Assembly (NCBI GenBank): GCA_025677605.1
Contig: GCA_025677605.1_4110.1
Source: a phage
DNA: 64,000 bases
Strand: one strand, 5' to 3'
The notes under the pieces were generated by a model. That model ran no database searches, was not told where the DNA came from, and worked only from the letters and a program-made list of their open reading frames with translations. Position numbers and translations under genes: made by a program. Of the stretch, positions 2,848 through 46,539 are shown one piece after another (within the stretch, counting starts at the first letter, position 1; the number at the start of each line of letters is the position of its first letter).

Positions 2848-2878
2848 GTAAAAATCCTTTTTTGTTTAATATATATCA

Positions 2879-2886
2879 TATTTATA
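2879..2886 (-). promoter_or_regulatory. Candidate late promoter (TATAAATA on minus strand) for fibre gene
   Basis: Plus strand TATTTATA about 32 nt upstream of the 2847 start codon. Confidence 0.4.
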
Positions 2887-2887
2887 T

Positions 2888-3196
2888 CTATAGTAAATCA
2901 TTTTCCATATCATCCAATACGGAATCAATAATATTTGCAGCTAACTTTTTAGGCATCTTGAACCATTCAGAGTTAGGTTGCCTTGTTGCATTCATTTGCT
3001 TTAATCTCTTATGCACTTCCTTTTCTGCTGTTCGTGCATCGTCAAACATAACCTGATGGTATACCTCAAAATCCCTGAATGGTGAAGCAGTCTGGTAAAC
3101 ACCTAAACGCTCTTTCATCTCTGATTTTGTAGTGAAGCCTATCTTTACATATTCAGGCCATGCACTATTAGTGATTACATAACATATTTGTGACAT
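2888..3196 (-). CDS. T5orf172 / GIY-YIG-like domain protein (stand-alone, 102 aa)
   Basis: CYVITNSAWPEYVKIGFT...ERL...SPF...EVYHQVMFDDARTAEKEVHKRL...SEWF matches the GIY-YIG-like T5orf172 pattern (IYxxxN, KIGxT, R, E..H, EWF). Confidence 0.6.
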   Translation of the reverse strand: MSQICYVITNSAWPEYVKIGFTTKSEMKERLGVYQTASPFRDFEVYHQVMFDDARTAEKEVHKRLKQMNATRQPNSEWFKMPKKLAANIIDSVLDDMENDLL

Positions 3197-14649: not shown

Positions 14650-14841
14650 AAGAACTTCTGGATGATATGGAGTTGAATAAATCAGATATTAAAAATGCCC
14701 TTATGGATGCTGCTGTTTATGTAGATAATGTCGATTATGCAACTCTACTTAATATGCCAGTAAATGACAGAGATATGCTTATTAAGGCATACAATAAGAA
14801 AGTAAAGAAGATGAACGAGAAGCACTAATACTCATAAGAAG

Positions 14842-14866
14842 CCAGCACATTGTTGCTGGTTTTTTT
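14842..14866 (+). terminator. Rho-independent terminator
   Basis: CCAGCA-cattgt-TGCTGG hairpin followed by TTTTTTTGTTTTTGTTTTTTGGGTTTTTT. Confidence 0.6.
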
Positions 14867-15123
14867 GTTTTTGTTTTTTGGGTTTTTTACTTACAAAGTA
14901 GATGAAAGAAATTATGATCTTAAAAGATTTATTCTTGAAGGAATTCATTTGATTTATATTGAACTCATCTAACTCATTTCATTCGTTAGCTGAAGAATAT
15001 TCGTTAACTACGTTAACTCATATTCATTTTAATATAATTATAAAGAACTTTAAATGATTTAATACTTGACGGGATTTGTTGAGGATATTTCATCCCCCCG
15101 CAGGGGAATGAAGATAATAAAAA

Positions 15124-15148
15124 AGAGACAATTAAGTCTCTGTTTCTT
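15124..15148 (+). terminator. Hairpin with T-rich tail (terminator-like) inside the ORF-free region
   Basis: AGAGAC-aattaa-GTCTCT then GTTTCTT; an adjacent hairpin TCATCCCCCC-gca-GGGGAATGA lies at ~15090-15112. Confidence 0.3.
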
Positions 15149-15683
15149 GACGCTGATGGCATCGGTATTATTGTATTGCGAATTTCTTAAAATTTAAACG
15201 TAATTATATTGTAAAAATATTAAGAACGAAAGCGGGTTGCTCTGTTTCTCTCTATCGCAGTCATGTGCAACGGTCGTCAGTCTTAAACATCCTGACACTC
15301 ACCTGAAAGTCTATACAATCAAACTTCAGGCTGTTTAATGAAATGAATCATCAAACTCCCTTAGCAAATCTGGTAAGGTGCGATCCTTATACATCTATCG
15401 AGGAACTCTCTGTATGCTTATCGGAGTTCTTTATTGAGCCGTGTCGCCGTGAGGGGTTCATAATATGCCCACATCTAACGGGTTTCTTTTGCTCATCGCA
15501 CTGTTGAACTGCTCATCTACCCTCTACATTTTCGAGTGGATTAGGTTCTAATTTATATGCATTTCTGCATTCAACAGGATTGTCAGTACTACATGAAACA
15601 TTATAGCACGCAATTTAAAAGTGTCTCAAAATATCTAATCTTTTTTATAAAAAAGTACTTAAAAATTTCTTAGGAATGTATTT

Positions 15684-15691
15684 CATAAATA
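15684..15691 (+). promoter_or_regulatory. Candidate late promoter (CATAAATA) for endonuclease VII-like gene
   Basis: About 32 nt upstream of ATG 15724. Confidence 0.4.
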
Positions 15692-15723
15692 TTTCATAAA
15701 CTAACTTAGATCTAAGGCACATT

Positions 15724-19442: not shown

Positions 19443-20295
19443 TCATATTCATTTCGATTTCAATCTGTCTTGTATGTGATGGTGTAAAACCATGCATCTC
19501 AAGAAGGTCGTCGCGAATGTTACGTACATTCTTCTCACTGTTCAAAATAGAACGGAAGCTATTGTTAACGAATGACGTATAGTATGAGAAAGGATTTAGT
19601 TGGACAGCGGGTTTATCTTTCTTATACAAGATACTCTCTTTAAAGAGAAGTGCATTTTTAACTAATTGTATTCTAGCATCACCCATCATTTCATCCAAAT
19701 ACGTATAATTTCTGTAGTTAGATTTGTGAGAGATCTCTTCTGCTAGTTTAATGAACATTTTACCGAGTTCATTTGTGATTTTACCATGTGTTAAGCAGAA
19801 ATCGCCATCTTCCAAGTCGCCTTTCCAATGTGAACGAACAACTTCATACAGAATACCTTCATTATCAACGATATAATGTTTAAATGGTTCAAAATTCACT
19901 CGTGTATCTGGTGGAATGTGCTCATCAGTGATAACTCGAATCACCACTTCATCCAGTGGTACATCATTTACGAATAGACCGTGCTCATCAGCATATTCCT
20001 TTGCTTTCTTAGCACTCATATTCTCTTTTTCGCGAACACTATCAAGCATTTCATTATTCAAACGTTTGATTCGTGCTGCTTTTGCCTTTTCAAGTAATTC
20101 TTCTGTGATTTCAGACTCATGAAACACAATATAATCATACATACCATAACTTTTATCCAAAAGCCAGCAGTATGATATCTTACTTTTATGTATTTCACGT
20201 AATAAGTCTGCGTTATTCAGATACTTCTTACGCTTCGGCTTGTTTATCATTGTAACTCTCCATGTAATGACCAATAGGCACAATCCGTGTGCCAT
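19411..20295 (-). CDS. Late-transcription sigma factor (gp55-like) with internal insertion; probable start Met at 20250 (MINKPK)
   Basis: N-terminus INKPKRKKYLNNADLLREI vs T4 gp55 TKPKYNYVNNKELLQAI; core LGKMFIKLAEEIS...NYTYLDEMMGDA...NPFSYYTSFVNNSF vs T4 IGLAIMLIAEGLS...SGYTQSWKQEMIADG...NPHAYITQACFNAF (from memory). Confidence 0.7.
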   Translation of the reverse strand: MAHGLCLLVITWRVTMINKPKRKKYLNNADLLREIHKSKISYCWLLDKSYGMYDYIVFHESEITEELLEKAKAARIKRLNNEMLDSVREKENMSAKKAKEYADEHGLFVNDVPLDEVVIRVITDEHIPPDTRVNFEPFKHYIVDNEGILYEVVRSHWKGDLEDGDFCLTHGKITNELGKMFIKLAEEISHKSNYRNYTYLDEMMGDARIQLVKNALLFKESILYKKDKPAVQLNPFSYYTSFVNNSFRSILNSEKNVRNIRDDLLEMHGFTPSHTRQIEIEMNMIERKNDDGTI

Positions 20296-20302
20296 CGCTA
20301 AT

Positions 20303-20330
20303 ATTATAGCACTAAAATCAGCTTTGTCCC
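20303..20330 (-). promoter_or_regulatory. sigma70-like promoter for the gp55-gp47-gp46 operon
   Basis: Minus-strand GGGACA-16-TATAAT followed by a 5'-UTR hairpin GGCACAcggatTGTGCC and a GGAG RBS. Confidence 0.45.
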
Positions 20331-20333
20331 ACC

Positions 20334-20341
20334 TATAAATA
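20334..20341 (+). promoter_or_regulatory. Candidate late promoter (TATAAATA) for the baseplate operon
   Basis: Exact TATAAATA about 34 nt upstream of ATG 20375; divergent from the gp55 promoter. Confidence 0.5.
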
Positions 20342-30792: not shown

Positions 30793-33700
30793 ATGAATGA
30801 ACGAATTTATGGAGTCCTATACATGACTAATAATTTTAAGTTTCTACCAACTAAAACGGCAGAAGCAGTACAACAGAAGCTTTTCATTAAAAGATTACCT
30901 GAATGGATGCAAGGCTTAGAAGACATTCAAAAGGTTAGTGATGATGTAATTCAACAATGGTTCAATCCAGCGGATAATGAAATCGTTGATGGATATATTG
31001 GTGATATGGGTTCTCCTGCTGCATCTGCTAAGATTTTCCTTGACGAAGCAACCGTTGAACGTCAGCTATATCAATTATCAACAGCATATGTGTCTCGTAA
31101 TGATGACACAAGCATTCGTTCGCTTCAATTTTATGATGATTTGGTTGGCTACATGGAACACTACGGCACGTTAACTTCAAACGAGAGCCGTCTATTTTCT
31201 GGTAAGTTCTATTCTTGGACACCACCAATTAACCCAAACAAAATGACCAACTACAGTTCCTATTTGTGGGATAGTAAAAATAGTTATGGTATCACAACTC
31301 CTGACTTTATTGTTATGGAACGTGGTGCTGATAACGGAAACACATGGTCCCTACAGAACTTTTGGTATACTATTGGTCAAACACTAGAAGATGGAACAGT
31401 ACTAACTGCTGACATGACACAAGATACTCGTTTTATTCGTGCACAAGCACCAATCATCGAGTACAATAAAAATATCGAATTAATTAACTACGGGACACAT
31501 TTCCGTGGTGTTGTGGATCTTTTCTCTGATACAATTAAACCAGAAGATATCGTCCAAAAAGACGTAAATGATGGTATTCGTATTGACGGGATTATTCCAC
31601 AAGATGGTATGCGTATTCTTTTCACTAGTATAGGTAACGTTGGTGAAAACAACCGCATTTATAAAGTTTTTATTAAGAAAATGCAAGATGGTTCTCGCAC
31701 ATATGGTCTAGCATTGGACCCAGATGAAGAAACTGACGACCGCCCAAGTGGTGAGCCACATAATGGTGATGTTATTTTGGTGCGTGATGGTAATGTATAT
31801 AAAAATACATCCATGTATTGGAATGGTGTTAACTGGATTAGAGCACAAACAAAATCTGGTGTAAACGTATTCCCACAATTCCAACTATATGACCGTGATG
31901 GTGTTAAATTAAATGATTCTACAATTTATCCATCAAGTAACTTTGTTGGTTCATCCCTATTTGGTTTTAAAATCAACTATAATTACGGCACTGATAAAGT
32001 ATATGGTTATAACATCGAACTAGGTAATTATAATTACTATATGTACGAAAACTTCCTACAAAGTGTTCGTTATACATATGATCATTTGGGTGTTGAAACT
32101 GAAATTTCTGGATTGTACTACTATAACGTAGTTGGTAAAGATAATGAACTACACCTTAAGACCGATTGGGTTCGTTCTAAGGAAGATTCAAAGCAATTCG
32201 TTAAACAAACGCCACAAATCGAACACACTGATATGTATCGTGTATTCAATACCGTATTCGAAATGGAAAACTTTAAAAATCCATTAGAAGGTATGTATGC
32301 ATATGTTACTGAAGTGGATCGTACCTATCAATATTACAAAGAAGAACGTCAAACCTATATGGATTGGCATGTAATTAGTGGTGAAGGTATTCAAAGTGAA
32401 CGTTTCAATCGCACATTTGAATTAGCCCAGAAAATTATTGATGGTAAGAGTACTGAAATCATTGAAATTCAAGTTGATGGTGTGGATGTAACCGATTATA
32501 CACGTCATGTATATAATAACAAGGTTCAAAGCATCACTTTAGGTGAAGATGTAGCTCTTAAAGATGAATCAGTGATTCAAATTAGAACATACAGCAGTAC
32601 TGAAGTACCAAATAAAGAGTTGGGTGCATATGAAATCCCAATCAACTTACAAAATAACCCATACAACGATAATATTCTTTATATCAACCAAAGTAATTTT
32701 ACATTACATTTTAAAGATATCATTCAAAAGAATATCACCAGTGGTTCCGTTGATGATTTCAACGACTACGAAGATCGTTTGTCTAAAGGTTTAGTGGATA
32801 ACTCCGTTGGTACTAAGATTATTCAAAACGAAGCATCAATGCTACCGTTAATGGCACATTCTGCAAATGAAGATATTGACCTATTTGAATCTGTATTGTT
32901 TATGCAATCCGAATATTTCCGTTTCGTAAACAAGTTCAATACACAAATGATCCGTTTGTACAATGAGAACCCAGCAAACTTCTTAGCTAATAATGCTTCT
33001 AATATTGTTGATGAAATTCTAACAATTATTAATATGGGTCATGATAATACTTTCCCATTCTATTATGATAACGTAGCAAGTACTTCTGGCTTCATTCGTG
33101 CGTTTGTACCACCAACTCCACAGTTTTTGGGTATTTTGAAAGCACACGTTCCAGAAAAAGCAACATTTTTGAATGCTGGTAGTAAGCAAAGCTGTTATAA
33201 CATCAGTCATACAGGTGCAATCACTAAAGCATACCGTGTAATAAACGGTGTTGATAAAATGGATGACGTTATATATGAGTTAGAAAATAGAATTTTCAAT
33301 AGTATTGATGTTATTTTCAAAGATGAAGATTACCAACCTAAGCTAGATGCTTCTGATCTTTTCCCAACTCCGTATTACAGAGATACAGAGTATAATGACG
33401 AAGAGAAAAAGAACTTACTACTACGTGGTTATATTAATTTCATCGCAACCAATGGTATCAGTAACAGTTCACATGATTATGATCCAAATAACTGGATGAC
33501 TTGGAACTATACTGGAACACATTATATGGTTAATGGTCAACAAACACAAATAGCAGCCCGTGGTTCATGGCGAGCAATCTACACTGACCAATTTGGTACA
33601 TATCGCCCAGCAACCCATCCGTGGGAAATGTTTGGTTTCTCCCAACGTCCAGTTTGGTGGAACCAGGAATATGAACCTACCGCAGTTCAAGTTGGCGAAC

Positions 33701-36700
33701 GTGATGGTGATGTTGTTTATGTATATGAGGCATTAGTTATCAACGAACAAGGTAACATGGTTCCTAGTGGGTTATGGGACGTTGGTAACGAGAAAGGTGA
33801 TAGCTCAACGGGTACTATCTTGTTTGGTGCACGTAAAGGTCAATATGACAAGTACAAACGTTTTGGTACACAACCATTTAAGATCACTAAAACAGGCAAG
33901 CAGACAGCATCTGGTGTTGATATTTGCGTCATTGAGTACATTGCTCCTGAAGTTTTAGGTCTTGTATATGGTAGTCTAAATCATCGTGCTGAACCGTGGA
34001 CTTATGGTGATATGGGTGATATGGAATTCACTTATATGAACACAGCAATGTTTGCATATGATGAATTATTGATGTTATTCAAAGCTAAACCTGCACAGTT
34101 CACAAACTATTTCTGGGATACCCGAAATAATACATTAAAAACTGTATCTGGTAATGAACCACAGTTTTTATATGGTGATACTCGTTTACGTTTGAACTTT
34201 AATAGTGATACAATCGTACATGGTGAGAATAGTACTCGCGTTATTGGTTATCAAATGATTGTTAGTGATTATTTGATGTATCAAAACAAAAATATTACAA
34301 CTAAGTACGGTGAAATTGTTCGTTCTTCTCATATTAATGTGGGTCATAAACTAGGTGGATTCACTAAAGCTGACCAATTAACATTTACATCAGAAGCAAC
34401 TGGTCTAATTTCACAAGAAAACCAATCTATCGGTTTAGTTCGTTCTAATAATATTAGAAATGAGCAAATGAGTGCAATTAAAATTACTTGGACTGGTAGT
34501 GCTTACCAAATTGATGGTTATGATTTAGTTTCTGCAACATTCAATTATAAATTGCCTGTTAAAAACGGTCATAAAGTATCTTTGAAAGTTGATAATCGTA
34601 ATGTTGTTCATTATAATGAGTGGAAAAATGATGCATCCATTCCTTACGGAACTTTGATGAATACCTTCCAGGAAGTTTACACATTTATTTGTGGTTATGG
34701 TGAGTATCTAAAGCAACATGGTTGGATTTTTGAAGAAGTTGATGAATCTGGTATCCAACAGGACTGGAATACAATTGCAAAAGACTTTTTAATCTGGAGT
34801 CAACAACAATTGAGTACTGGTGAATTCATTTCTTGTACCCCATCAGCAATTAATGCTAAATTTGGTACAGATTTTGGTTCAGTTCAGTCAATTGCACAAA
34901 ATAGTGGTGGTGTTTGGTCATTATTAGATGATTCAAACCAAGGTATACGTCAATTTGAGATTGAAACATCTCGTATTGGTAACATATTCACGGTAAGAAC
35001 TACTGAAGAATCAAATAAACGCATGGCACTTATTCGTTTAAGTATCAGTTCTTATGAACATGCTGTTATTTTTGATGATCAGACTATTTTCGGTGATTAT
35101 ATCTATGAACCAACCTATGGTGCAGTTCAAGAATTGATTAAATTGTATGGATATATCACTGGTTCATGGTCTGGACGTTTACAAGCTCCTGGATTTATCA
35201 TCCTAGAAGCTGGGACATTACCATCATTTGAAACTTTGGTGTCTAATTTCCAACATTATTATGATAATGAAACCCCAGTTAGTGATGTTCAATTAAATGA
35301 ACTTTCAAACCACTTAATTGGCTATCAGTCTCGTGATTACTTACAACGTATGATCACTAATGAGCCTGGTCGAATTGATTTCTATAAAGGTTTTATTCAT
35401 GATAAAGGCACTAACCAAGTACTAGAAAAAGTATTACGTGTATCTAAATCATATAATACTGATGAGTATAAAGCATTACAAGAATGGGCATTCCGTGTTG
35501 GTTCTTATGGTAACATTGATGGTGTTAAAAATCTTCAATTTAAACTAATTAATAATGAGTTTAAACAACAACCACAAATGATTACGTTCGACCGTTATTC
35601 CGATAAGGTTGAATCTGAGAATGAAATTGTATATTATGGTGAAATTGGTGAAGATTCACGCTGGATTAGTCGTCCAAAAGGTAAATTCTCATTCCCTATG
35701 CGTAATGGGAGAAGTGAGAATATCCAATTACCTAATATTGGACCAGTAACCCTAGATGAAATTGATTATACCACATTAAATTACGAAACTGCAAATCAAG
35801 ACCGCATTAGTTATATGAATAATTCTGGTAAAATCCCAACATCTGTTTGGATGTTCCAAGATATCAATAACGAATGGAATGTGTATGATTTAGTAGATAC
35901 TGGTATTACAATGGTTTCTATTACACCAATTGAAAGTGAAGATCCATATGCTGAGCAATATTGTAAAGTACTATTGTCTGATGATATCCCACTCAATGAT
36001 GGTGATTATTATTATTTTGTTGATGAAACAAACTTTATGCCTGATGCCCTACGTGATGAATGCCAATACTACACTTCTGGACTAGATCCAAAAGTTATGG
36101 TAGTGCCATTTGACACTTCCATTACTATTGACTTTTCAACAGTAGAATCAGCACCACGTTTGTATCGTTATGTTAGTAGATTTAGTACTCAACAAGAACG
36201 CGATGAATATATTGCTAAAAAATATAGTTACAGTGCACCTGAAAGCACTTTGTTTGACCGTCCTACTACGTATGATGAAAGAACAAACATTACTGCATTG
36301 TATTTGAATGTGTTTGACCCAATTAACGGTGTTATTCCTGGGGTTGCAATGCAAGATGTTGATTTCATCTCTCCAGTGGACCCAGCACAGTATAGCAGTA
36401 ACGGTGAACTATTACAAGCATGGGGTGCTGAAAAGGTAGGTAAAGTGTGGTGGAACACTAGCACTGCATTCTATCTGGATTATACCCGTCCAATCTTTGA
36501 TGAGGATGGTAACGTTGATGTAAAAGCAACTAATGAATATAAGCGTTATAATTGGGGTAAATTATTACCACACAGTGTTATTGATGTTCTAGAATGGGTT
36601 AGTTCACCAGTAGAACCATACAACTGGGAAAAATATTGTGCAGAACAAGCCAATAAAAATAAAAACAATACTATGTATCTCCCAAGTGGGATTGCAATGG

Positions 36701-39700
36701 ATGAGAACTACAGTTCATCTATGGAATATGATCCAATCACTGATACATATGTAGTTCGTTATTATTTCTGGGTTCGTAATACCATTTATGTTCCACCAAT
36801 GACTACTCGTAGTAAGTCTTGTACTGATATTGCACGTATTATTCAAGATCCAACACAATTGAATGTTCCTTGGTTTGCACCTATTAATGAAAATAGTTTC
36901 ATTCTAAGTAATATGCAATTTGAAGTTAATGATGATACAAGCATTTTGACAATTTCATATAGAAATGACAATATCGAAGTACTGAAGCATGATCAATATC
37001 AACTTTGTAAAGAAGGTGATAGTTATGACTTTAACCCAGATATTTGGAATTCACTATGGAACTCACTAATTGGTCAAGAAACTACTTCAACTGGTGTTGT
37101 AAATGAAATAATTTATCCTAAAGTTGAAACTGGTTTAGGTTCTAATAAAACTTGGTTCCAGAATGTCATTGAAGCTCGTCGTGCGTTTGTTGAAAGTGCA
37201 AATAACTTTTACCGTTCACAGAACATCACAACTAACAGTGTTGTTATGAATGATGTGTTTAATGTGAAAACATTAAAAATGAACCCAAATGATATTACAT
37301 TCCGTGTTCTATCATTTAACAATGAATTGGTAATTGCACCAGAAGATAACCGCTTTAAAGAGAATGATGCAGTATTTGTAAGTTCCATCGGAACTCTACC
37401 AGCACCATTATCTTCTAGTTCAGTATATTTTGTTCACATTGATCCAAATGGATACATTCAATTGATGAACAGCCCAAGTACAGTTGGTAGTACTGTTACA
37501 ATCACTCTAGAAAATAGAGGTGAAGGTCAACACAAGATGATTAAACAAGCTGACTTCATAGAATCACTTGGTACATCTTTGGATATGACCCAGTACTGGA
37601 ATCTGGCTGATTGGTACGATACTGGATACGATAGCAACACTGAATATACACAAGAAGTTAGTTTAGATGACGCAAACACTAAAAATTACCAAATTGGTGA
37701 TATTATCCGTGTAACTGATAGTGATGGTGTTTGGACATTATACATCAAGACTGCATCTCGTAATAATATATACTGGAAAGCTATTGGACGTGAGAATAGT
37801 ACAGTTGAATTGAATTCAATGTTATATTCTGGGTACAATGTTTACAATGATGATGGTTCTTTGAATTCTCATGAGGTTAACGTTCGTAATGCGTTAGCGT
37901 TGTTGAAAAATTCATTCAACTTATATCAAAGTAATATTGTTTTTGATATGGTTAAGTACGTACACACTGAACAAAGTGTTGTTGACTGGGTATTCAAAAC
38001 CTCATATATCTATATTGTAGGTTTAGAACAATCTCTCGTACAAAACTACTCAAATGACAACTTGATTAATCAAATTGTTGAGTACTTCGAAGAAGTTAAA
38101 CCATACAGAACCAAAATCCGTTCTCAAATAGAACAGAAAACTTCTGATGATGATTTGATTAATGGTATCAGTAATGACCTTGACCCAGATGGCTATATTT
38201 TAGTTGATGGTGTGTGGGTTAAGACTGAAAAAGACATTTGGGATTTAGAATATGCACAATTTAATGACGTAACCCAACGTTGGGAAAAGATTGGTTCACT
38301 ACCAAGTGACTTTATCACACCTAACAGACGATTCCAAGAAATCGACGTTATTATGCATTATGATAATATTCAATGTGACCCGTATGATAGTAATTATACA
38401 ATTGATGAGTTGAAATCAACCAATAGTAAGTATCAATCTAATGCTTCGGATATAGGAAATGATTATGAGTTACAGAGATATGTTTATACATTCCCTGAAT
38501 ATGATAATAATACCTTAATTTCACAGATTGGTATTGAAATGACTACCAAATATTCAGATTTGGATATTAGTAATGGTGTCATTAAAGGAATTGATGCATG
38601 GTATAAAGCCCATTCAACTGATATTGCAATGACTGACCAATTTACTGCTGATTTGGAGCAGGTAACTGCTGATACAAACAACAGTAACATTTTAGAAGAC
38701 GTTAAGAAATATATTCAATACAATACATTGGCAACTCGTGTGAAAATGTTTAAGAATATATCTGATGACATGGTTTCTAATGAGATTGGTTGTCCATTTA
38801 AGGGTACGAACTATAATGATAATCCTAATACTCGCCTACCTTTTGGGTTCAGTGCAAGTAGTGATTACAACTATGGTTATTTTGAGATTAGTATTGAACT
38901 ATATGAAAAATATGTCGATATGATCAAGAAAAATCACCCTGAGTTTACTAATGAAGACCAAGTTCGTAATATACTAGAGATAGAATATGGTGTTTATTGC
39001 TACAAGTATGATACCACATTAAATGACCGTTATTATTCTGATACCGTTCATGTGTTATCTGCAATGCGACAAACATTTAATAAGAATATTCTAGATCATT
39101 ATTATGTTGCTAGAGAAATCTTAAGTAATCGTGCAGTTGATAAGTATGCTTTTGTTATGATGCCAAGGAAATATGTGTATGTTGTGAATGCGGCAGGTGA
39201 ATATCTACCGATTCCTGAAAGTTACAGCATATCTGATTTCATGGAAGACTTATTCATAACAACCGGAGAATCAGTTGTATTGGCTGAAATTGATTTAAAT
39301 GATTTACCACAAGACCAGAATAATCCAATGTATTCTGCATATGTTGAAGTACTGGAAAGTATCAATACTGCAAAATATTTCAATGATATGAATGCATTCG
39401 ATAACTTGGCATTGGAATCACAAACCAAATCCATTAAATGGGAAGTTAAAGATAGTGAGATTGATCCTTATATCATCGACATTTCTGAACTAAACCCATC
39501 AGGAAGAACAATGGCACAATTACGTTTCACTGTTGATGGTTACGGTTTCGATGAAGTTGCTCAAGAGCAATTAAAAGACACAAGTAGATTCCAGATTGAG
39601 GGTATGATCGTACAAAACCCTTACAATATGTCAGAAGCAGTTGTAAGTATTCCATCATATGATATTGTCATTGAGAATATGGGTAAAGATGTGTTCAAAG

Positions 39701-40800
39701 AATCTGAAAAATACTTCTTCCCAATTTCAGAAATTAAAACAATTACTGAAATCAAAGTTCACGATGAAGGTTTGAAAGATGGTGATAAGGTTATGATTTT
39801 CACGCCAGATGGTGAAGATTATGTACGATTCCAAGACGGTAACTGGGTAACTATATTAAGTGCTAGTAAAATCCAATCCTCTAAAAAACCAAAACTATAC
39901 ACAGTACGTGTATTGGGTAATGGTAACGTAGAGTTGGTTGATAGTAATGGTGTAGTGTTAATGTTTGATAGTATAACTAAGCGTGAAAGTAATGAGCGTT
40001 TTTATACATTATCAATGAACTTAGTTAGAATCCGCACTTTCCAAGACCCTGAGTTTGATGACAATGGACTTAAACTATATGAAAATAATCGTCATTACAG
40101 TATACATGCATTGAACTATGAAGTATTCTATGACGAAACATTATATGGTGGTAAATTCAATGATGGTATCACACCTGATGAAATTGATTTGTGGTTAGTT
40201 TCCAATGAGATTTTTGAAGTTGATGGTATTACAATTGATAATGGTTACAATCAGCCAATCTCTGGTAAAGGTGTCCTGGGTGAACTAGTACGAGCTAAAA
40301 TGACTGATGGTATTGAAATCACTGTATTTGAATACGATGTTGATGTTATTCAACCAGTACTAAGTTATGATCGCGTGTGGCAGTATGCACAACCTGTGGT
40401 CAATAACACGTTCATCAAAGAAGTAGGATGTAGTGTAATTAACATTACAACCGTTGAAGATGAGGCAATCACTTATGTTGCTAAACCTCGTTCAATAAGC
40501 CCATATATCATTACTGATTCAGTACTGTCAGGTGCTGCGGCACAGAATGATGATATTATTGTGGTTGGATATGAGAAGGTTCAGGTAAGAAACACTGACC
40601 GTCTATTACGTGGTGTCATGTATAGTGCGGAACATAATTTTACTAAAGGAACGTCTTATAGCTTTAATGGATTGAACTTGGGGAGCATTGATAAGTTTAC
40701 TCAATATCAAAACTTCTATCCACCAATTCCATTAGATACATTCAGAAATGGATTGTCAATTACTGGAACTGATATCGAAAATCTATTGAATATTCAATAA
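30793..40800 (+). CDS. Giant virion protein (3335 aa), in the gp7 (baseplate wedge) position
   Basis: Uninterrupted 10,008-nt ORF with RBS (GGAG) upstream; follows gp6-like gene where T4 has gp7 (1032 aa); no motifs recognised by eye. Confidence 0.6.
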   Translation: MNERIYGVLYMTNNFKFLPTKTAEAVQQKLFIKRLPEWMQGLEDIQKVSDDVIQQWFNPADNEIVDGYIGDMGSPAASAKIFLDEATVERQLYQLSTAYVSRNDDTSIRSLQFYDDLVGYMEHYGTLTSNESRLFSGKFYSWTPPINPNKMTNYSSYLWDSKNSYGITTPDFIVMERGADNGNTWSLQNFWYTIGQTLEDGTVLTADMTQDTRFIRAQAPIIEYNKNIELINYGTHFRGVVDLFSDTIKPEDIVQKDVNDGIRIDGIIPQDGMRILFTSIGNVGENNRIYKVFIKKMQDGSRTYGLALDPDEETDDRPSGEPHNGDVILVRDGNVYKNTSMYWNGVNWIRAQTKSGVNVFPQFQLYDRDGVKLNDSTIYPSSNFVGSSLFGFKINYNYGTDKVYGYNIELGNYNYYMYENFLQSVRYTYDHLGVETEISGLYYYNVVGKDNELHLKTDWVRSKEDSKQFVKQTPQIEHTDMYRVFNTVFEMENFKNPLEGMYAYVTEVDRTYQYYKEERQTYMDWHVISGEGIQSERFNRTFELAQKIIDGKSTEIIEIQVDGVDVTDYTRHVYNNKVQSITLGEDVALKDESVIQIRTYSSTEVPNKELGAYEIPINLQNNPYNDNILYINQSNFTLHFKDIIQKNITSGSVDDFNDYEDRLSKGLVDNSVGTKIIQNEASMLPLMAHSANEDIDLFESVLFMQSEYFRFVNKFNTQMIRLYNENPANFLANNASNIVDEILTIINMGHDNTFPFYYDNVASTSGFIRAFVPPTPQFLGILKAHVPEKATFLNAGSKQSCYNISHTGAITKAYRVINGVDKMDDVIYELENRIFNSIDVIFKDEDYQPKLDASDLFPTPYYRDTEYNDEEKKNLLLRGYINFIATNGISNSSHDYDPNNWMTWNYTGTHYMVNGQQTQIAARGSWRAIYTDQFGTYRPATHPWEMFGFSQRPVWWNQEYEPTAVQVGERDGDVVYVYEALVINEQGNMVPSGLWDVGNEKGDSSTGTILFGARKGQYDKYKRFGTQPFKITKTGKQTASGVDICVIEYIAPEVLGLVYGSLNHRAEPWTYGDMGDMEFTYMNTAMFAYDELLMLFKAKPAQFTNYFWDTRNNTLKTVSGNEPQFLYGDTRLRLNFNSDTIVHGENSTRVIGYQMIVSDYLMYQNKNITTKYGEIVRSSHINVGHKLGGFTKADQLTFTSEATGLISQENQSIGLVRSNNIRNEQMSAIKITWTGSAYQIDGYDLVSATFNYKLPVKNGHKVSLKVDNRNVVHYNEWKNDASIPYGTLMNTFQEVYTFICGYGEYLKQHGWIFEEVDESGIQQDWNTIAKDFLIWSQQQLSTGEFISCTPSAINAKFGTDFGSVQSIAQNSGGVWSLLDDSNQGIRQFEIETSRIGNIFTVRTTEESNKRMALIRLSISSYEHAVIFDDQTIFGDYIYEPTYGAVQELIKLYGYITGSWSGRLQAPGFIILEAGTLPSFETLVSNFQHYYDNETPVSDVQLNELSNHLIGYQSRDYLQRMITNEPGRIDFYKGFIHDKGTNQVLEKVLRVSKSYNTDEYKALQEWAFRVGSYGNIDGVKNLQFKLINNEFKQQPQMITFDRYSDKVESENEIVYYGEIGEDSRWISRPKGKFSFPMRNGRSENIQLPNIGPVTLDEIDYTTLNYETANQDRISYMNNSGKIPTSVWMFQDINNEWNVYDLVDTGITMVSITPIESEDPYAEQYCKVLLSDDIPLNDGDYYYFVDETNFMPDALRDECQYYTSGLDPKVMVVPFDTSITIDFSTVESAPRLYRYVSRFSTQQERDEYIAKKYSYSAPESTLFDRPTTYDERTNITALYLNVFDPINGVIPGVAMQDVDFISPVDPAQYSSNGELLQAWGAEKVGKVWWNTSTAFYLDYTRPIFDEDGNVDVKATNEYKRYNWGKLLPHSVIDVLEWVSSPVEPYNWEKYCAEQANKNKNNTMYLPSGIAMDENYSSSMEYDPITDTYVVRYYFWVRNTIYVPPMTTRSKSCTDIARIIQDPTQLNVPWFAPINENSFILSNMQFEVNDDTSILTISYRNDNIEVLKHDQYQLCKEGDSYDFNPDIWNSLWNSLIGQETTSTGVVNEIIYPKVETGLGSNKTWFQNVIEARRAFVESANNFYRSQNITTNSVVMNDVFNVKTLKMNPNDITFRVLSFNNELVIAPEDNRFKENDAVFVSSIGTLPAPLSSSSVYFVHIDPNGYIQLMNSPSTVGSTVTITLENRGEGQHKMIKQADFIESLGTSLDMTQYWNLADWYDTGYDSNTEYTQEVSLDDANTKNYQIGDIIRVTDSDGVWTLYIKTASRNNIYWKAIGRENSTVELNSMLYSGYNVYNDDGSLNSHEVNVRNALALLKNSFNLYQSNIVFDMVKYVHTEQSVVDWVFKTSYIYIVGLEQSLVQNYSNDNLINQIVEYFEEVKPYRTKIRSQIEQKTSDDDLINGISNDLDPDGYILVDGVWVKTEKDIWDLEYAQFNDVTQRWEKIGSLPSDFITPNRRFQEIDVIMHYDNIQCDPYDSNYTIDELKSTNSKYQSNASDIGNDYELQRYVYTFPEYDNNTLISQIGIEMTTKYSDLDISNGVIKGIDAWYKAHSTDIAMTDQFTADLEQVTADTNNSNILEDVKKYIQYNTLATRVKMFKNISDDMVSNEIGCPFKGTNYNDNPNTRLPFGFSASSDYNYGYFEISIELYEKYVDMIKKNHPEFTNEDQVRNILEIEYGVYCYKYDTTLNDRYYSDTVHVLSAMRQTFNKNILDHYYVAREILSNRAVDKYAFVMMPRKYVYVVNAAGEYLPIPESYSISDFMEDLFITTGESVVLAEIDLNDLPQDQNNPMYSAYVEVLESINTAKYFNDMNAFDNLALESQTKSIKWEVKDSEIDPYIIDISELNPSGRTMAQLRFTVDGYGFDEVAQEQLKDTSRFQIEGMIVQNPYNMSEAVVSIPSYDIVIENMGKDVFKESEKYFFPISEIKTITEIKVHDEGLKDGDKVMIFTPDGEDYVRFQDGNWVTILSASKIQSSKKPKLYTVRVLGNGNVELVDSNGVVLMFDSITKRESNERFYTLSMNLVRIRTFQDPEFDDNGLKLYENNRHYSIHALNYEVFYDETLYGGKFNDGITPDEIDLWLVSNEIFEVDGITIDNGYNQPISGKGVLGELVRAKMTDGIEITVFEYDVDVIQPVLSYDRVWQYAQPVVNNTFIKEVGCSVINITTVEDEAITYVAKPRSISPYIITDSVLSGAAAQNDDIIVVGYEKVQVRNTDRLLRGVMYSAEHNFTKGTSYSFNGLNLGSIDKFTQYQNFYPPIPLDTFRNGLSITGTDIENLLNIQ

Positions 40801-40801
40801 C

Positions 40802-40836
40802 AAAAAAGGAGAGCCAATGGCTCTCCTTTTCTTTTT
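40802..40836. terminator. Bidirectional terminator between the convergent giant gene and clpA-like gene
   Basis: AAAAAA-GGAGAGCC-aat-GGCTCTCC-TTTTCTTTTT. Confidence 0.6.
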
Positions 40837-43120
40837 ACACTACAGATGGGGTTTTAACTTGACGTTTTGGTTTGATACCCAACTTTCCGTTAATCACATC
40901 AAATGTTACGTTACCACCATTTACCAGTGAACCGCATAGCATTTCTTTAGCCAGAGGAACACGGATGTTCTGCTCGATTGTACGTTTCATTGGACGTGCA
41001 CCCATTCCAGGCTGAACACCATTTGCTTCTAACCATTCACGAGCCGCTTTAGTCAGTGTTACTTTCACGCCACGCTCTTTGATTTGCTCATTTAGACCAG
41101 CCATGAACTTATCAATAACGCTCTGGATAGCTTCACTGGATAGCTCATTAAACTTCACGATGCTATCGATACGGTTTAGGAATTCAGGTGGTAGGAAAGC
41201 TTTCACTGCCTTCTCCTGTGCTGTTTCACCACCACTCAAACCCAGACTACGTTTATTTGCATCTGCTGCACCCAAGTTGGTTGTCATAATAACTGTTACG
41301 TTGTTAAAGTATACAGTTTTACCCTGTGAACCAGTTAGGTGACCTTCATCCAGAACCTGTAGGAAGGTTAGCAGTACTTTAGGGTGTGCTTTTTCAATTT
41401 CGTCCAGCAGTAGAACTGCATTCGGGAATTGCTCAATTTTGTCGAGTAGCAGACCATTACCAGTATCGTGACCAACATAGCCAGGAGGTGAACCAATTAG
41501 TTTTGCAACGGTATGTTCTTGTGAAAATTCAGACATATCGAAGCGAATCAGTTCAGAACCCATTGCATCGGCTAGTGCTTTAGTGATTTCAGTTTTACCA
41601 GTACCAGACGGACCGACAAACATGAATGCACCCTGAACACTTGCTTTCTCACGAAGTCCTGCACGTGCAACCATTACGTTATCAACCAATTTCTCCACTG
41701 CTTCTTCTTGACCGAATACACGACTACGAAGTGCTGCTGGTAGTGACTTCATACGTTCAGTTTCAGTACAAGCTACTACGTTGATATCCAAGTTTGCAAT
41801 TCCCGCAACAACTTCTTGAATTGTGCGTAGTGAAATCACATTATCAGATTCATCGCGTGAACGTTTCTTAGCTGCTGCTGCATCCATAATGTCGATTGCT
41901 TTGTCTGGGAAGTGTTTGTTCTTCAGGAACTTATCACTCAAAGACACAATCGCATCCATTGCTTCAGTACTGAAAGTTACGTTATGGAATTTCTCATATG
42001 TACCTTGCAGACCATTTACAATCGCACGAGTTTCTTCAATAGTTGGCTCAACTACGTCAATTTTCATGAAACGACGAGTCAATGCACTATCTTTCTCGAT
42101 GTTTTTACGATATTCATCATAAGTAGTTGCACCGATTACACGAATCTCACCACGAGATAGTGCTGGTTTCAACATGTTACTCATATCCATTGAACCGTTG
42201 CTTGCAGAACCTGCACCTACCATGATATGGATTTCGTCAATGAACACGATTGTATTTTCACGTTTCTTCAGTTCTTTGAGAAGATTATCAATACGTTCTT
42301 CGAATTCACCACGATACTTAGTACCAGCGGTTAGTGCACCAACGTTAAGAGATAAAATCTCAATGTTTTGTAGATGTTCTGGTACATTACCATCAACAAT
42401 GGCTTGTGCTAGACCGTCAACAATCTGAGTTTTACCAACACCAGCTTCACCAGTAAGAATAGCATTCTTCTTAGTTTTACGAGCCAGAGTTTCAATTAGT
42501 GCATCCAGTTCTTTTTGACGACCAATCATTGGGTCCAGTTTACCATCTTTAGCCAACTGTGTTAGGTTGGTCGTGTAATCTTCGATTGATTTCTGTTTTG
42601 ATGCAGGTTGTTGTTGAGCCACCTTTTTCTCCCCAGTAGGTTCATCAGCGATGCTTTGTAGGTTAATTTCAGAATCAAGAGATTCTACATATTTCTGAAG
42701 AGTGCGGGCCGCTTCAGTACGAGTTACACCCTCTTCCAACAATGCTGCTTCTAATGCAGTGTTTGGGAATGACAAACATTCAAACAGTACAAAGAATGCA
42801 TCAATTGAGAAATCGTCACGTTTGAGTTGTTCGATGACAGATTTCTTAGATAGTTCTTGCATTACACGATTGACGATTAGTGTAGTGCGATTAACTTCTT
42901 CCCCCATAGTGCTGCGTGGTGCGTGTGGAACATTGGTATTTTTCAGATATTCAATCAAGCGGTCACGCACTTTCGTTGCGTCAACGTTCATTGTACCAAA
43001 TACATCAATAATGCTATCCACTGTCAGTACTGTAGCACTGATGTGATCGATTGTCAAGAAAGTATGACCCATAGAGGTTGCAAGGTCGTCGCTGCTTTTG
43101 AATAGCTGTGTTAAATTCAT
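40835..43120 (-). CDS. clpA: ClpA-like two-ring AAA+ unfoldase (Clp/Hsp100 family)
   Basis: Walker A GEAGVGKT (D1) and GPSGTGKT (D2); Walker B IVFIDEIH and LLLDEIEKAH; RFDMSEFSQEHTVAKLIGSPPGYVGHD matches ClpA [27 protein letters not shown]; N-terminal Clp-N-like repeats; GARPMKR sensor; 761 aa, no ClpB-type middle domain. Confidence 0.85.
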   Translation of the reverse strand: MNLTQLFKSSDDLATSMGHTFLTIDHISATVLTVDSIIDVFGTMNVDATKVRDRLIEYLKNTNVPHAPRSTMGEEVNRTTLIVNRVMQELSKKSVIEQLKRDDFSIDAFFVLFECLSFPNTALEAALLEEGVTRTEAARTLQKYVESLDSEINLQSIADEPTGEKKVAQQQPASKQKSIEDYTTNLTQLAKDGKLDPMIGRQKELDALIETLARKTKKNAILTGEAGVGKTQIVDGLAQAIVDGNVPEHLQNIEILSLNVGALTAGTKYRGEFEERIDNLLKELKKRENTIVFIDEIHIMVGAGSASNGSMDMSNMLKPALSRGEIRVIGATTYDEYRKNIEKDSALTRRFMKIDVVEPTIEETRAIVNGLQGTYEKFHNVTFSTEAMDAIVSLSDKFLKNKHFPDKAIDIMDAAAAKKRSRDESDNVISLRTIQEVVAGIANLDINVVACTETERMKSLPAALRSRVFGQEEAVEKLVDNVMVARAGLREKASVQGAFMFVGPSGTGKTEITKALADAMGSELIRFDMSEFSQEHTVAKLIGSPPGYVGHDTGNGLLLDKIEQFPNAVLLLDEIEKAHPKVLLTFLQVLDEGHLTGSQGKTVYFNNVTVIMTTNLGAADANKRSLGLSGGETAQEKAVKAFLPPEFLNRIDSIVKFNELSSEAIQSVIDKFMAGLNEQIKERGVKVTLTKAAREWLEANGVQPGMGARPMKRTIEQNIRVPLAKEMLCGSLVNGGNVTFDVINGKLGIKPKRQVKTPSVV

Positions 43121-43160
43121 GTTCTCTCCTATGTGATTCTTCTCACTGTCATTAAAATCA

Positions 43161-43188
43161 TTATATCACATTCTTTCAGTTTGTCTAC
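43161..43188 (-). promoter_or_regulatory. sigma70-like promoter with extended -10 for clpA-like gene
   Basis: Minus strand: TAGACA-16-TGaTATAAT about 35 nt upstream of the start codon; GGAGAGAA RBS. Confidence 0.55.
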
Positions 43189-46074: not shown

Positions 46075-46539
46075 ATGAATGAGGCAGTAGGAGCAATATT
46101 TTTATCTAAAAGTACTGGTCATATGATGCTCAATCTTAGATCTGAAAGCAGTACCTATTCAAACAACTGGGCTTTTGTTGGTGGAAAACTCGAATACAAC
46201 GAATCCCCTTTGCAAGCTTTGCATCGTGAAATACGAGAAGAATTGGGAGATTCGTTACCTGATATAATTGATATTATACCCTTTGATGTATTTTGTACTA
46301 AGAATGGTAAGTTCAAATATTATTCTTTCGTTGTTGTTGTTGAAAATGAGTTTGTTCCTATTCTCAATAAGGAAAGCTCTGGATATGCTTGGGTTAAAAT
46401 TGGCTCATGGCCTAAACCTCTTCACCCTGGAGCTAAAAATACATTATTAAATGTCAATTTGATGAAAGATTTTTATTCTTTATGGGAAAGTATAAACGCT
46501 GGTACACAATTTGTCAATAGTCTACCATATAGATATTAA
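46075..46539 (+). CDS. Nudix hydrolase
   Basis: Nudix box GGKLEYNESPLQALHREIREELG fits Gx5Ex7REUxEExGU. Confidence 0.8.
   Translation: MNEAVGAIFLSKSTGHMMLNLRSESSTYSNNWAFVGGKLEYNESPLQALHREIREELGDSLPDIIDIIPFDVFCTKNGKFKYYSFVVVVENEFVPILNKESSGYAWVKIGSWPKPLHPGAKNTLLNVNLMKDFYSLWESINAGTQFVNSLPYRY

Follow-up and report, generated by a model that had tools for sequence, protein, structure and literature searches.

What does a gene for a bacterial-type protein unfoldase do among the baseplate genes of a jumbo phage, and with which peptidase, if any, does its product work? The question is raised by a 64,000-nucleotide stretch of phage DNA (GenBank assembly GCA_025677605.1, contig GCA_025677605.1_4110.1), called here the window, in which a first reading of the letters alone (hereafter the sequence-only reading) had picked out a ClpA-like gene, clpA, on the minus strand. 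Escherichia phage A4 (ON286972.1, Asteriusvirus, 355.5 kb) matches the window at 99.5% identity, and its counterpart gene, A4_579, is annotated 'ClpA-like protein' and is 99.9% identical. The gene is therefore already known: besides its annotation in GenBank (A4), Attai et al. (PMC6102473, 2018) and Iyer et al. (PMC7824862, 2021) already record ClpA in RaK2-like jumbo phages. Functional work on phage ClpA or ClpP did not turn up in our literature searches, and neither the Sharanji and fEgEco12 genome papers nor the main text of the PA5oct paper mentions Clp. We think it somewhat probable that the gene encodes a functional ClpA-type unfoldase that acts as the ATPase of a Clp protease encoded by the phage itself. 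What we add to the record is a conserved trio of ClpA, ClpP and a ClpS-like adaptor, the divergence of both faces of the docking interface and of the adaptor pocket, and a promoter common to clpA and clpP in A4; these suggest hypotheses, not demonstrated functions.

A complete ClpA-type two-ring ATPase

The sequence-only reading had described the product as a complete two-ring Clp/Hsp100 ATPase of the ClpA type, without the middle domain of ClpB. Profile searches, alignments and a structure model bear this out, and they divide the gene and its protein as follows (pLDDT, predicted local distance difference test).

40835..43120, minus strand: clpA-like coding sequence, 761 amino acids plus stop (= A4_579); open reading frame, profile and alignment matches.
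42671..43120, minus strand: N-domain, residues 1-150, a divergent double Clp_N-like repeat of 4+4 helices; alignment, Pfam, AlphaFold.
42581..42670, minus strand: flexible linker, residues 151-180; pLDDT below 50 for residues 153-176, poorly conserved.
41786..42580, minus strand: D1 AAA+ module, residues 181-445, without a middle-domain insertion; profiles, alignments, model. Motifs: Walker A GEAGVGKT 224-231; KYR pore loop 268-270; Walker B IVFIDE 291-296; RRF 349-351.
40886..41785, minus strand: D2 AAA+ module and small domain, residues 446-745; profiles, alignments, model. Motifs: Walker A GPSGTGKT 503-510; GYVG pore loop 547-550; Walker B LLLDE 570-574; sensor-2 GARP 707-710.
41237..41245, minus strand: LGL tripeptide, residues 626-628, at the position of the ClpP-docking IGL of ClpA; alignments.

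Pfam matches in the protein fall to AAA (D1, 221-341), AAA_lid_9, AAA_2 (D2, 497-654) and ClpB_D2-small (660-739), and the top NCBIfam model is that of ClpA, TIGR02639 (762 bits, residues 3-741). When the protein was compared with the PDB by phmmer, E. coli ClpA (1KSF) came first, with E=8.8e-180 and as a single colinear stretch (17-741 versus 20-734); the alignments of ClpB and ClpC break into two stretches at their middle domain. With ClpA as the top model, no middle domain and split ClpB alignments, a ClpB/Hsp104-type identity was rejected. By BLASTP, the protein is 43% identical to E. coli K-12 ClpA across 733 amino acids; by domain, the identity is 17% in the N-domain, 51% in D1 and 46% in D2. 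Each ring has an intact Walker A and Walker B, and the pore loops (KYR, GYVG), the arginines of RRF and the GARP of sensor-2 are intact as well. The tripeptide that had been matched by eye with the docking IGL of ClpA aligns there exactly (KRSLGLSGG on RKSIGLIHQ, so that LGL 626-628 takes the place of IGL 617-619), and it conforms to the docking-motif pattern [LIV]-G-[FL] in D2.

The AlphaFold model (mean pLDDT 80.6) comprises D1 and D2 without a coiled-coil insertion, with residues 153-176 as a disordered linker and the loop that carries LGL (624-630) at low confidence, or flexible. Its nearest solved structures by identity are ClpA chains (46-48%, target-normalised TM-score 0.76-0.87). By profile, alignment and model, then, the protein is a complete ClpA-type two-ring unfoldase without the ClpB/ClpC middle domain. 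It falls under the NCBIfam equivalog cut-offs (762 vs 993 bits for TIGR02639, 654 vs 1350 for NF008263), and the profile of PHROG 4871 ('ATP-dependent protease') matches it over its full length (1006 bits, residues 2-755). Judged from its scores, it belongs to a divergent ClpA-like clade and is not an equivalog of cellular ClpA.

The N-domain, whose presence had also been claimed, is marginal by sequence, while the model has the expected fold. Pfam Clp_N gives 19.1 bits, under its cut-off of 20.7, with the first repeat alone aligned, and a search of the PDB with the N-domain alone returned ClpA N-domains exclusively, but weakly (E=0.08). The AlphaFold model builds the domain from eight helices as a 4+4 repeat (block pLDDT 58-91), and many relatives have a Clp_N (PF02861) match. 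Since identity is low to E. coli (17%) and higher inside the phage clade (mean 48%), and since the domain is under purifying selection (see below), the pattern is consistent with a surface for adaptor or substrate that has been kept but retargeted.

A ClpP and a ClpS-fold protein encoded elsewhere in the phage genome

The observation that neither clpP nor clpS is visible holds for the 64-kb window, but not for the genome, where a ClpP (A4_455) and a ClpS-fold protein (A4_74) lie outside it. A4_455 (231 amino acids) matches Pfam CLP_protease over nearly its full length (143.7 bits) and gets 157-158 bits from the NCBIfam ClpP models, far more than the 52 bits from the model of a head-maturation protease related to ClpP. 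An alignment with E. coli ClpP shows 36% identity and brings Ser97, His122 and Asp171 into register. The ClpP triad and the N-terminal gating loop are kept in seven phage genera, and a C-terminal extension of ~25 amino acids is conserved in phage ClpP. By these comparisons A4_455 is a genuine ClpP with an intact catalytic triad. In some records the homologue is labelled 'head maturation protease', a label which is probably wrong, because A4 has a separate T4-type prohead protease, A4_8, adjoining the scaffold and capsid genes. A local tblastn of the A4 genome found a single ClpP, a single Hsp100 ATPase and no ClpX, so that ClpA would be the sole phage-encoded unfoldase for phage ClpP.

Near clpP, A4 has two more candidate peptidase-like genes. 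A4_467 ('ClpP/crotonase-like', L003:45219-45824) was considered as a second ClpP subunit and not accepted, its match being partial (50 columns around SPGG, hhalign probability 69%). A4_469 (L003:46227-46829) has a weak HslV-like match (E=4e-4) which, far below the cut-off, is not established.

A4_74 (181 amino acids) is annotated 'protease adapter protein'. A pairwise BLAST against E. coli ClpS found no similarity, and its single-sequence match to Pfam ClpS is under the cut-off. The profile of its family (15 members), run against the PDB, gives ten matches below E=0.01, all of them ClpS (best E=1.4e-5). Further, the AlphaFold model of A4_74 (pLDDT 82.6) superposes on ClpS with a root-mean-square deviation of ~1.2 Å over ~82 residues, and the top 35 matches of this model in Foldseek are all ClpS. 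As modelled, A4_74 is a protein with the ClpS fold.

At the positions of E. coli ClpS, the profile alignment gives N34D, D36P, M40A and H66N in A4_74, with D35, T38 and E79 kept; N34, D35, T38, M40 and H66 are what we take to be the N-degron pocket residues of E. coli ClpS. The N-terminal ~70 residues of A4_74 are predicted to be structured. By alignment and model, A4_74 has neither the canonical N-degron pocket of ClpS nor its disordered N-terminal extension. The A4_74 gene lies 14 nucleotides downstream of the phage gene for translation initiation factor IF3 (A4_73), L007:12644-13707, behind a TTGACA-17-TACAAT promoter; it is unusual for what looks like a single operon to pair a translation factor with the adaptor of a protease.

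Co-inheritance of the trio

At a threshold of 60% identity, the phage collection yields 69 records for ClpA and 70 for ClpP; the adaptor occurs in 72, and all three are distributed over the genera in the same way. The identities of ClpA and ClpP run in parallel: ~85/90% in PBECO4-type phages, 74/71% in RaK2-type phages, 60/70% in GAP32 and 40/35% in PA5oct-like phages. The last of these have ClpA and ClpP and lack the adaptor family of A4_74. From this distribution, clpA is one third of a ClpA/ClpP/ClpS-like trio conserved in the lineage.

An old resident of the phage lineage

Homologues of this ClpA are present in all RaK2-like jumbo phages, and its identity to them and to more distant relatives is as follows.

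121Q / PBECO4 type: ~85%.
RaK2 / K64-1 / Muenster: 74%.
CBB / GAP32 / Yersinia / Serratia / Erwinia phages: ~60%.
A Vibrio jumbo phage: 45%.
PA5oct-like Pseudomonas phages: 40%.

The search for relatives of ClpA covered 5.8 billion proteins. The phage clade extends from 100% down to ~53% identity, at 846 bits or more; below it comes one intermediate match at 45%, and then the cellular ClpAs, for example that of Legionella (42%, 609 bits).

The genomic setting is also conserved. As the sequence-only reading had it, clpA lies on the opposite strand, convergent with the gene for a giant structural protein of 3335 amino acids (30793..40800). Baseplate and tail genes stand on its flanks; in A4 the neighbours of A4_579 are the baseplate wedge, giant structural protein, structural protein, tail sheath stabiliser and NUDIX genes. 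Both GAP32 and the Vibrio phage keep the arrangement in which clpA, on the opposite strand, stands beside the structural gene, the sheath stabiliser and NUDIX. In Pseudomonas phage MIJ3, clpA comes after dnaJ and before a giant tail protein gene. There it is directly downstream of dnaJ on the same strand (L020:8284-11202), as in PA5oct-like phages, and adjacent ClpA and DnaJ genes have been reported for Atu_ph07 (PMC6102473); this adjacency hints at a chaperone link in the more distant relatives.

Compared with phAPEC6, the ratio of nonsynonymous to synonymous substitution rates (dN/dS) of clpA is 0.086, overall and in the N-domain alike. With 43% identity to the host ClpA, a conserved gene order and this low dN/dS, clpA is, on comparative grounds, an old and selected resident of the phage lineage. 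A recently captured host gene, that is, a passenger or moron without a specific phage role, would fit the host-type promoter and a G+C content slightly above that of the flanking genes (0.39-0.40 vs 0.33-0.36). The protein is, however, no closer to E. coli ClpA than to that of Legionella (43% and 42%), the phage clade is set apart from cellular ClpAs by a gap in score (846 bits or more vs 609), and the gene order shared across genera, the dN/dS and the scores under the NCBIfam ClpA equivalog cut-offs all speak against recent capture. We rejected it as extremely improbable.

Both faces of the ClpA-ClpP docking interface have diverged

Across the phage clade, the docking tripeptide reads LGL (A4), IGM, IGA, IGV, IGG, MNM/MSM, LGM, MGM, VGM or VGF; PBECO4-type phages have IGM and RaK2 has IGV. 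The three cellular ClpAs in the same alignment have IGF or IGL. The central glycine is kept in 19 of the 21 phage-clade sequences examined. The cores of the ATPase motifs are kept clade-wide (53-100% identity), with conservative changes only: four sequences have Phe for Tyr in the D1 pore loop, and three have Thr or Ile for Val in GYVG. After the tripeptide, E. coli I620, H621 and Q622 are replaced by S, G and G in A4; in the E. coli complex these three residues contact ClpP (bioRxiv 10.1101/820209).

On the side of the peptidase, Lopez et al. (bioRxiv 10.1101/820209) list 14 ClpP residues that contact the IGL loop. The A4 ClpP is identical at two of these (Y62 and M92), vs 36% identity overall. 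From E. coli ClpP to A4 ClpP, the pocket changes as follows.

L23 to M; E26 to D; L48 to V; F49 to W; A52 to S.
Y60 to T; Y62 kept as Y; F82 to S; I90 to V; M92 kept as M.
F112 to L; L114 to G; L189 to I; R192 to P.

Y60T, F82S, L114G and R192P are non-conservative. The ClpP of the PA5oct-like phage compared is 52% identical to that of E. coli and keeps L48, F49 and I90, and the ClpA of this phage has the canonical IGF. Because the tripeptide and the ClpP pocket have both diverged, and because a more canonical pocket goes with a canonical tripeptide in the PA5oct-like phage, the divergence on both sides of the interface suggests a co-evolved phage pair rather than a hijacking of host ClpP.

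A separate transcription unit with a promoter of the replication class

The sequence-only reading had given clpA its own sigma70-like promoter, TAGACA-16-TGaTATAAT, and this was confirmed, together with the other elements of the unit.

43182..43187, minus strand: -35-like hexamer TAGACA of the clpA promoter; consensus scan, kept in phAPEC6.
43160..43168, minus strand: extended -10 element TG-a-TATAAT after a 16-nucleotide spacer; 11/12 matches plus TG, predicted start near 43153.
43125..43130, minus strand: Shine-Dalgarno sequence AGGAGA, 4 nucleotides 5' of the ATG; sequence.
40798..40830, unstranded: hairpin terminator (hairpin 40804..40830) between an A-tract and a T-tract; scan and RNA fold.

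The promoter, TAGACA-16-TG-a-TATAAT, is of the sigma70-like extended -10 type, spans 43187..43160 and is identical in phAPEC6. The terminator lies directly 3' of the clpA stop; its stem has 12 pairs in the consensus scan or 14 in the RNA fold, is followed by UUUUUUG on the clpA strand, and folds with a deltaG of -22 kcal/mol (z = -6.1). Lying between these two tracts, it could serve both convergent genes, which suggests that it may also terminate the 3335-amino-acid structural gene. Judged from these elements, clpA forms a monocistronic unit with signals of its own, on the strand opposite to its neighbours.

In the whole A4 genome (355 kb, both strands) the exact form TAGACA-N13-TG-N-TATAAT occurs at two sites, one 39 nucleotides 5' of the clpA ATG and the other 35 nucleotides 5' of the clpP ATG; in first-order Markov simulations the average is 0.03 sites. 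The two promoters have GTAGACAAA...TGTGATATAAT in common, the GTAGACAAA block preceding phage clpP as well as clpA. The wider class [GT][GA]GACA-N13-TG-N-TATAAT has 16 sites in A4, all on one strand, with 0.075 expected by chance. Sites of this class are also found 5' of the genes for the single-stranded DNA-binding protein (two sites), primase, exonuclease, the late sigma factor, a nudix protein and a tRNA, and in the stretch that leads up to the DNA polymerase gene. By its appearance this may be the 'middle' promoter class of Asteriusvirus; its site at the late sigma factor gene lies in the window, at positions 20251-20340 (minus strand).

Most operon-leading structural genes in the window, including those for capsid, scaffold, baseplate wedge, fibre and the giant protein, have a T4-like late motif, ATAAATA, 22-81 nucleotides upstream (for example 5' of 30823, 27277, 6000 (minus strand) and 53252), and so do the operons that surround clpA. 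In the upstream region of clpA itself no ATAAATA late motif was found. Among relatives, K64-1 has TTGACA-17 promoters at both clpA and clpP, and the clpA promoter of GAP32, TGGAACG...TGTGCTATAAT, resembles the 'TGAAACG' promoter class described for CBB and GAP32 (PMC5259590). Given a sigma70-type class that serves replication genes, and no ATAAATA 5' of clpA, motifs give good support to an expression of clpA that does not depend on the late genes and probably coincides with that of the replication genes. For the 'early' expression suggested before, a better wording, going by the motifs, is that clpA has a promoter of the class used by the genes for replication and for the late sigma factor.

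A proposed phage Clp protease and its rivals

A genuine ClpP and a ClpS-fold adaptor are encoded and co-inherited with ClpA, which makes a phage ClpA-ClpP(-ClpS-like) machine the more economical reading. In such a machine, a ClpA hexamer would dock through its LGL loop onto phage ClpP A4_455, its most likely partner, and the choice of substrate would probably be set by the diverged N-domain together with the ClpS-fold adaptor A4_74. ClpA would be made from the sigma70-type extended -10 class that serves the replication genes and clpP, before the late operons or independently of them. It would work in the infected cytoplasm and not in the virion: the 62-protein table of virion mass spectrometry for phAPEC6 lists the neighbours gp244, gp245 and gp248 but not the ClpA homologue gp246c, and this argues that ClpA is not a virion protein. 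Candidate targets may be sought among host or defence/restriction proteins, in host takeover, or in quality control of a proteome that includes 3000-amino-acid proteins. A 2025 review raises the targeting of defence or restriction proteins for phage ClpXP homologues, and calls them 'of unknown function' (PMC12707154).

A bolder form of this proposal would have an orthogonal, co-evolved ClpA-ClpP-ClpS-like protease whose interface, a variable tripeptide facing a remodelled ClpP pocket with a C-terminal extension, is insulated from host ClpX, ClpA and ClpP, which through its diverged N-domain and altered adaptor pocket reads a degron code of its own unlike the host N-end rule, and which, switched on with the replication genes, destroys specific host proteins such as defence or restriction factors. 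We put this forward only tentatively, as a possibility on the doubtful side.

Several observations weigh against a phage Clp protease. For the clade as a whole, the physical pairing of ClpA with phage ClpP and the timing of expression are both inferred. The interface comparison covers seven genomes aligned to the pocket residues of E. coli, and is uncalibrated against cellular ClpPs of like divergence. The LGL of A4 is the most host-like tripeptide in the clade, and could still allow docking on E. coli ClpP; the MNM, MSM and IGG of some relatives might dock on no ClpP at all, favouring ClpP-independent action there. In the other genera examined the exact TAGACA pairing of clpA and clpP was not found: the clpP of PBECO4 has TGGACA, and that of GAP32 lies inside an operon without a promoter of its own. 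Outside A4, then, the comparison of upstream regions indicates that the promoter class is conserved but the exact clpA/clpP pairing is not. Mass spectrometry of the CBB virion detected its ClpP, by a single peptide. Finally, the conserved place of clpA in the tail/baseplate module is unexplained by a general protease role.

Two other modes of action had been offered by the sequence-only reading, a redirection of host ClpP and an activity that does without ClpP, and the finding of a phage ClpP and adaptor makes both less likely. If phage ClpA docked on the ClpP of its E. coli host, alone or in mixed complexes, it would redirect host proteolysis to substrates chosen by the phage. LGL would suit this as a conservative variant of IGL that fits [LIV]-G-[FL], as would a D2 that is 46% identical to that of E. 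coli ClpA and a host ClpP present from the start of infection. But the phage has an intact ClpP of its own, co-inherited with clpA in ~70 genomes, the ClpP-contacting I620, H621 and Q622 have become S, G and G, and the tripeptide drifts (IGM, IGA, IGG, MNM) among close relatives on the same hosts, which is hard to square with a constant host pocket. We consider docking on host ClpP unlikely.

Translocation of unfolded proteins or a role in virion assembly was proposed by Iyer et al. 2021 for the ClpA/ClpX of jumbo-phage subgroups (PMC7824862), and an unfoldase or assembly chaperone that serves virion morphogenesis without ClpP, acting for example on the adjacent 3335-amino-acid baseplate/tail protein, would explain why the tail/baseplate position by a giant virion protein is kept in A4, GAP32, the Vibrio jumbo phage and MIJ3. 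It would also agree with clpA standing beside dnaJ in MIJ3 and Atu_ph07 (PMC6102473), with the GroES-like and DnaJ-like proteins that the phage also encodes, and with the relaxed docking constraint that MNM, MSM and IGG suggest in some relatives. However, the opposite strand, the non-late promoter and the separate terminator mean that clpA is not co-transcribed with the structural genes; the A4 tripeptide is still hydrophobic-Gly-hydrophobic, with the glycine in 19/21 clade sequences, and ClpP and the ClpS-like adaptor are kept throughout the lineage. An assembly chaperone therefore seems to us quite improbable, and a phage-encoded Clp protease is the reading we retain.

Phage Clp homologues recur in jumbo-phage genome papers, and what was a lone annotation now becomes a concrete model of unfoldase, peptidase and adaptor. 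Should the pair prove orthogonal to host Clp, this would be a virus that brings along a compartmentalised protease and a degron logic of its own, and it could serve synthetic biology as an insulated degradation module; should it not, the phage would simply carry one more copy, of an ordinary kind, of a quality-control protease like that of the host.

Other features of the window and genome

The gene for the giant 3335-amino-acid virion protein (30793-40800) is annotated in A4 as 3325 amino acids, starting from 30823. The protein has been seen in phAPEC6 virions as gp245 (382 kDa), and a giant protein also adjoins clpA in GAP32 and MIJ3. Inside the tail module, at window positions 46075-46539, lies a gene for a NUDIX hydrolase; a NUDIX gene is found beside the tail sheath stabiliser and clpA also in GAP32 and a Vibrio jumbo phage. 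A T5orf172-domain gene (window 2875-3183), which may be part of a mobile element or related to an endonuclease, sits between capsid and tail fibre genes in the late structural region.

At window positions 14816-15723, ~900 bp have no annotated gene and hold open reading frames of 32-55 amino acids only. One promoter of the 16-site class falls there (A4 205544, ~window 15626, minus strand), and an unannotated small gene or a non-coding RNA is possible; an Rfam scan of the window gave no match. Outside the window, A4_560/A4_561 (L005:3818-6621) encode an AAA ATPase and a protein with DUF2201 putative metallopeptidase and VWA domains, behind two perfect TTGACA-16-TGATATAAT promoters 93 bp apart.

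Comparison with known systems

ClpB/Hsp104 and ClpC have the two-ring Hsp100 core in common with the phage protein, with strong sequence and fold matches, but carry a coiled-coil middle domain that the phage ClpA lacks. ClpB is also without a ClpP-docking loop.

The nearest characterised counterpart is E. coli ClpA in the ClpAPS system (PDB 1KSF/1R6B; 6UQE/6W20 for ClpAP by cryo-EM; 7UIV for ClpAPS). The architecture is the same (761 amino acids in the phage vs 758), and the two proteins are 43% identical and colinear, with all catalytic and pore motifs and a hydrophobic-Gly-hydrophobic tripeptide in the same place; as in ClpAPS, a ClpP and a ClpS-fold protein are encoded in the same genome. 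Unlike E. coli ClpA, the phage protein has an N-domain that is 17% identical, LGL-SGG for IGL-IHQ, and sub-equivalog scores. Its ClpP differs from that of E. coli in a remodelled docking pocket and a C-terminal extension, and its adaptor from E. coli ClpS in an extra structured N-terminal domain of ~70 amino acids and altered pocket residues. The phage genes for ClpA, ClpP and the adaptor lie apart from one another; in E. coli, by contrast, clpS and clpA form an operon.

Among phages, Agrobacterium phage Atu_ph07 has ClpA, ClpP and ClpS, plus ClpX and ClpB (PMC6102473). PA5oct-like phages also encode ClpA and ClpP but, unlike A4, have the canonical IGF, no adaptor of the A4_74 family, and clpA after dnaJ on the same strand. 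The phage ClpA described here is a member of the RaK2-like jumbo-phage ClpA family (PHROG 4871; A4_579, 121Q gp581, RaK2_00069, GAP32_229, phAPEC6 gp246c) and occupies the same genomic position. Within this family there is no essential difference, the docking tripeptide being LGL in A4, IGM in PBECO4-type phages and IGV in RaK2.

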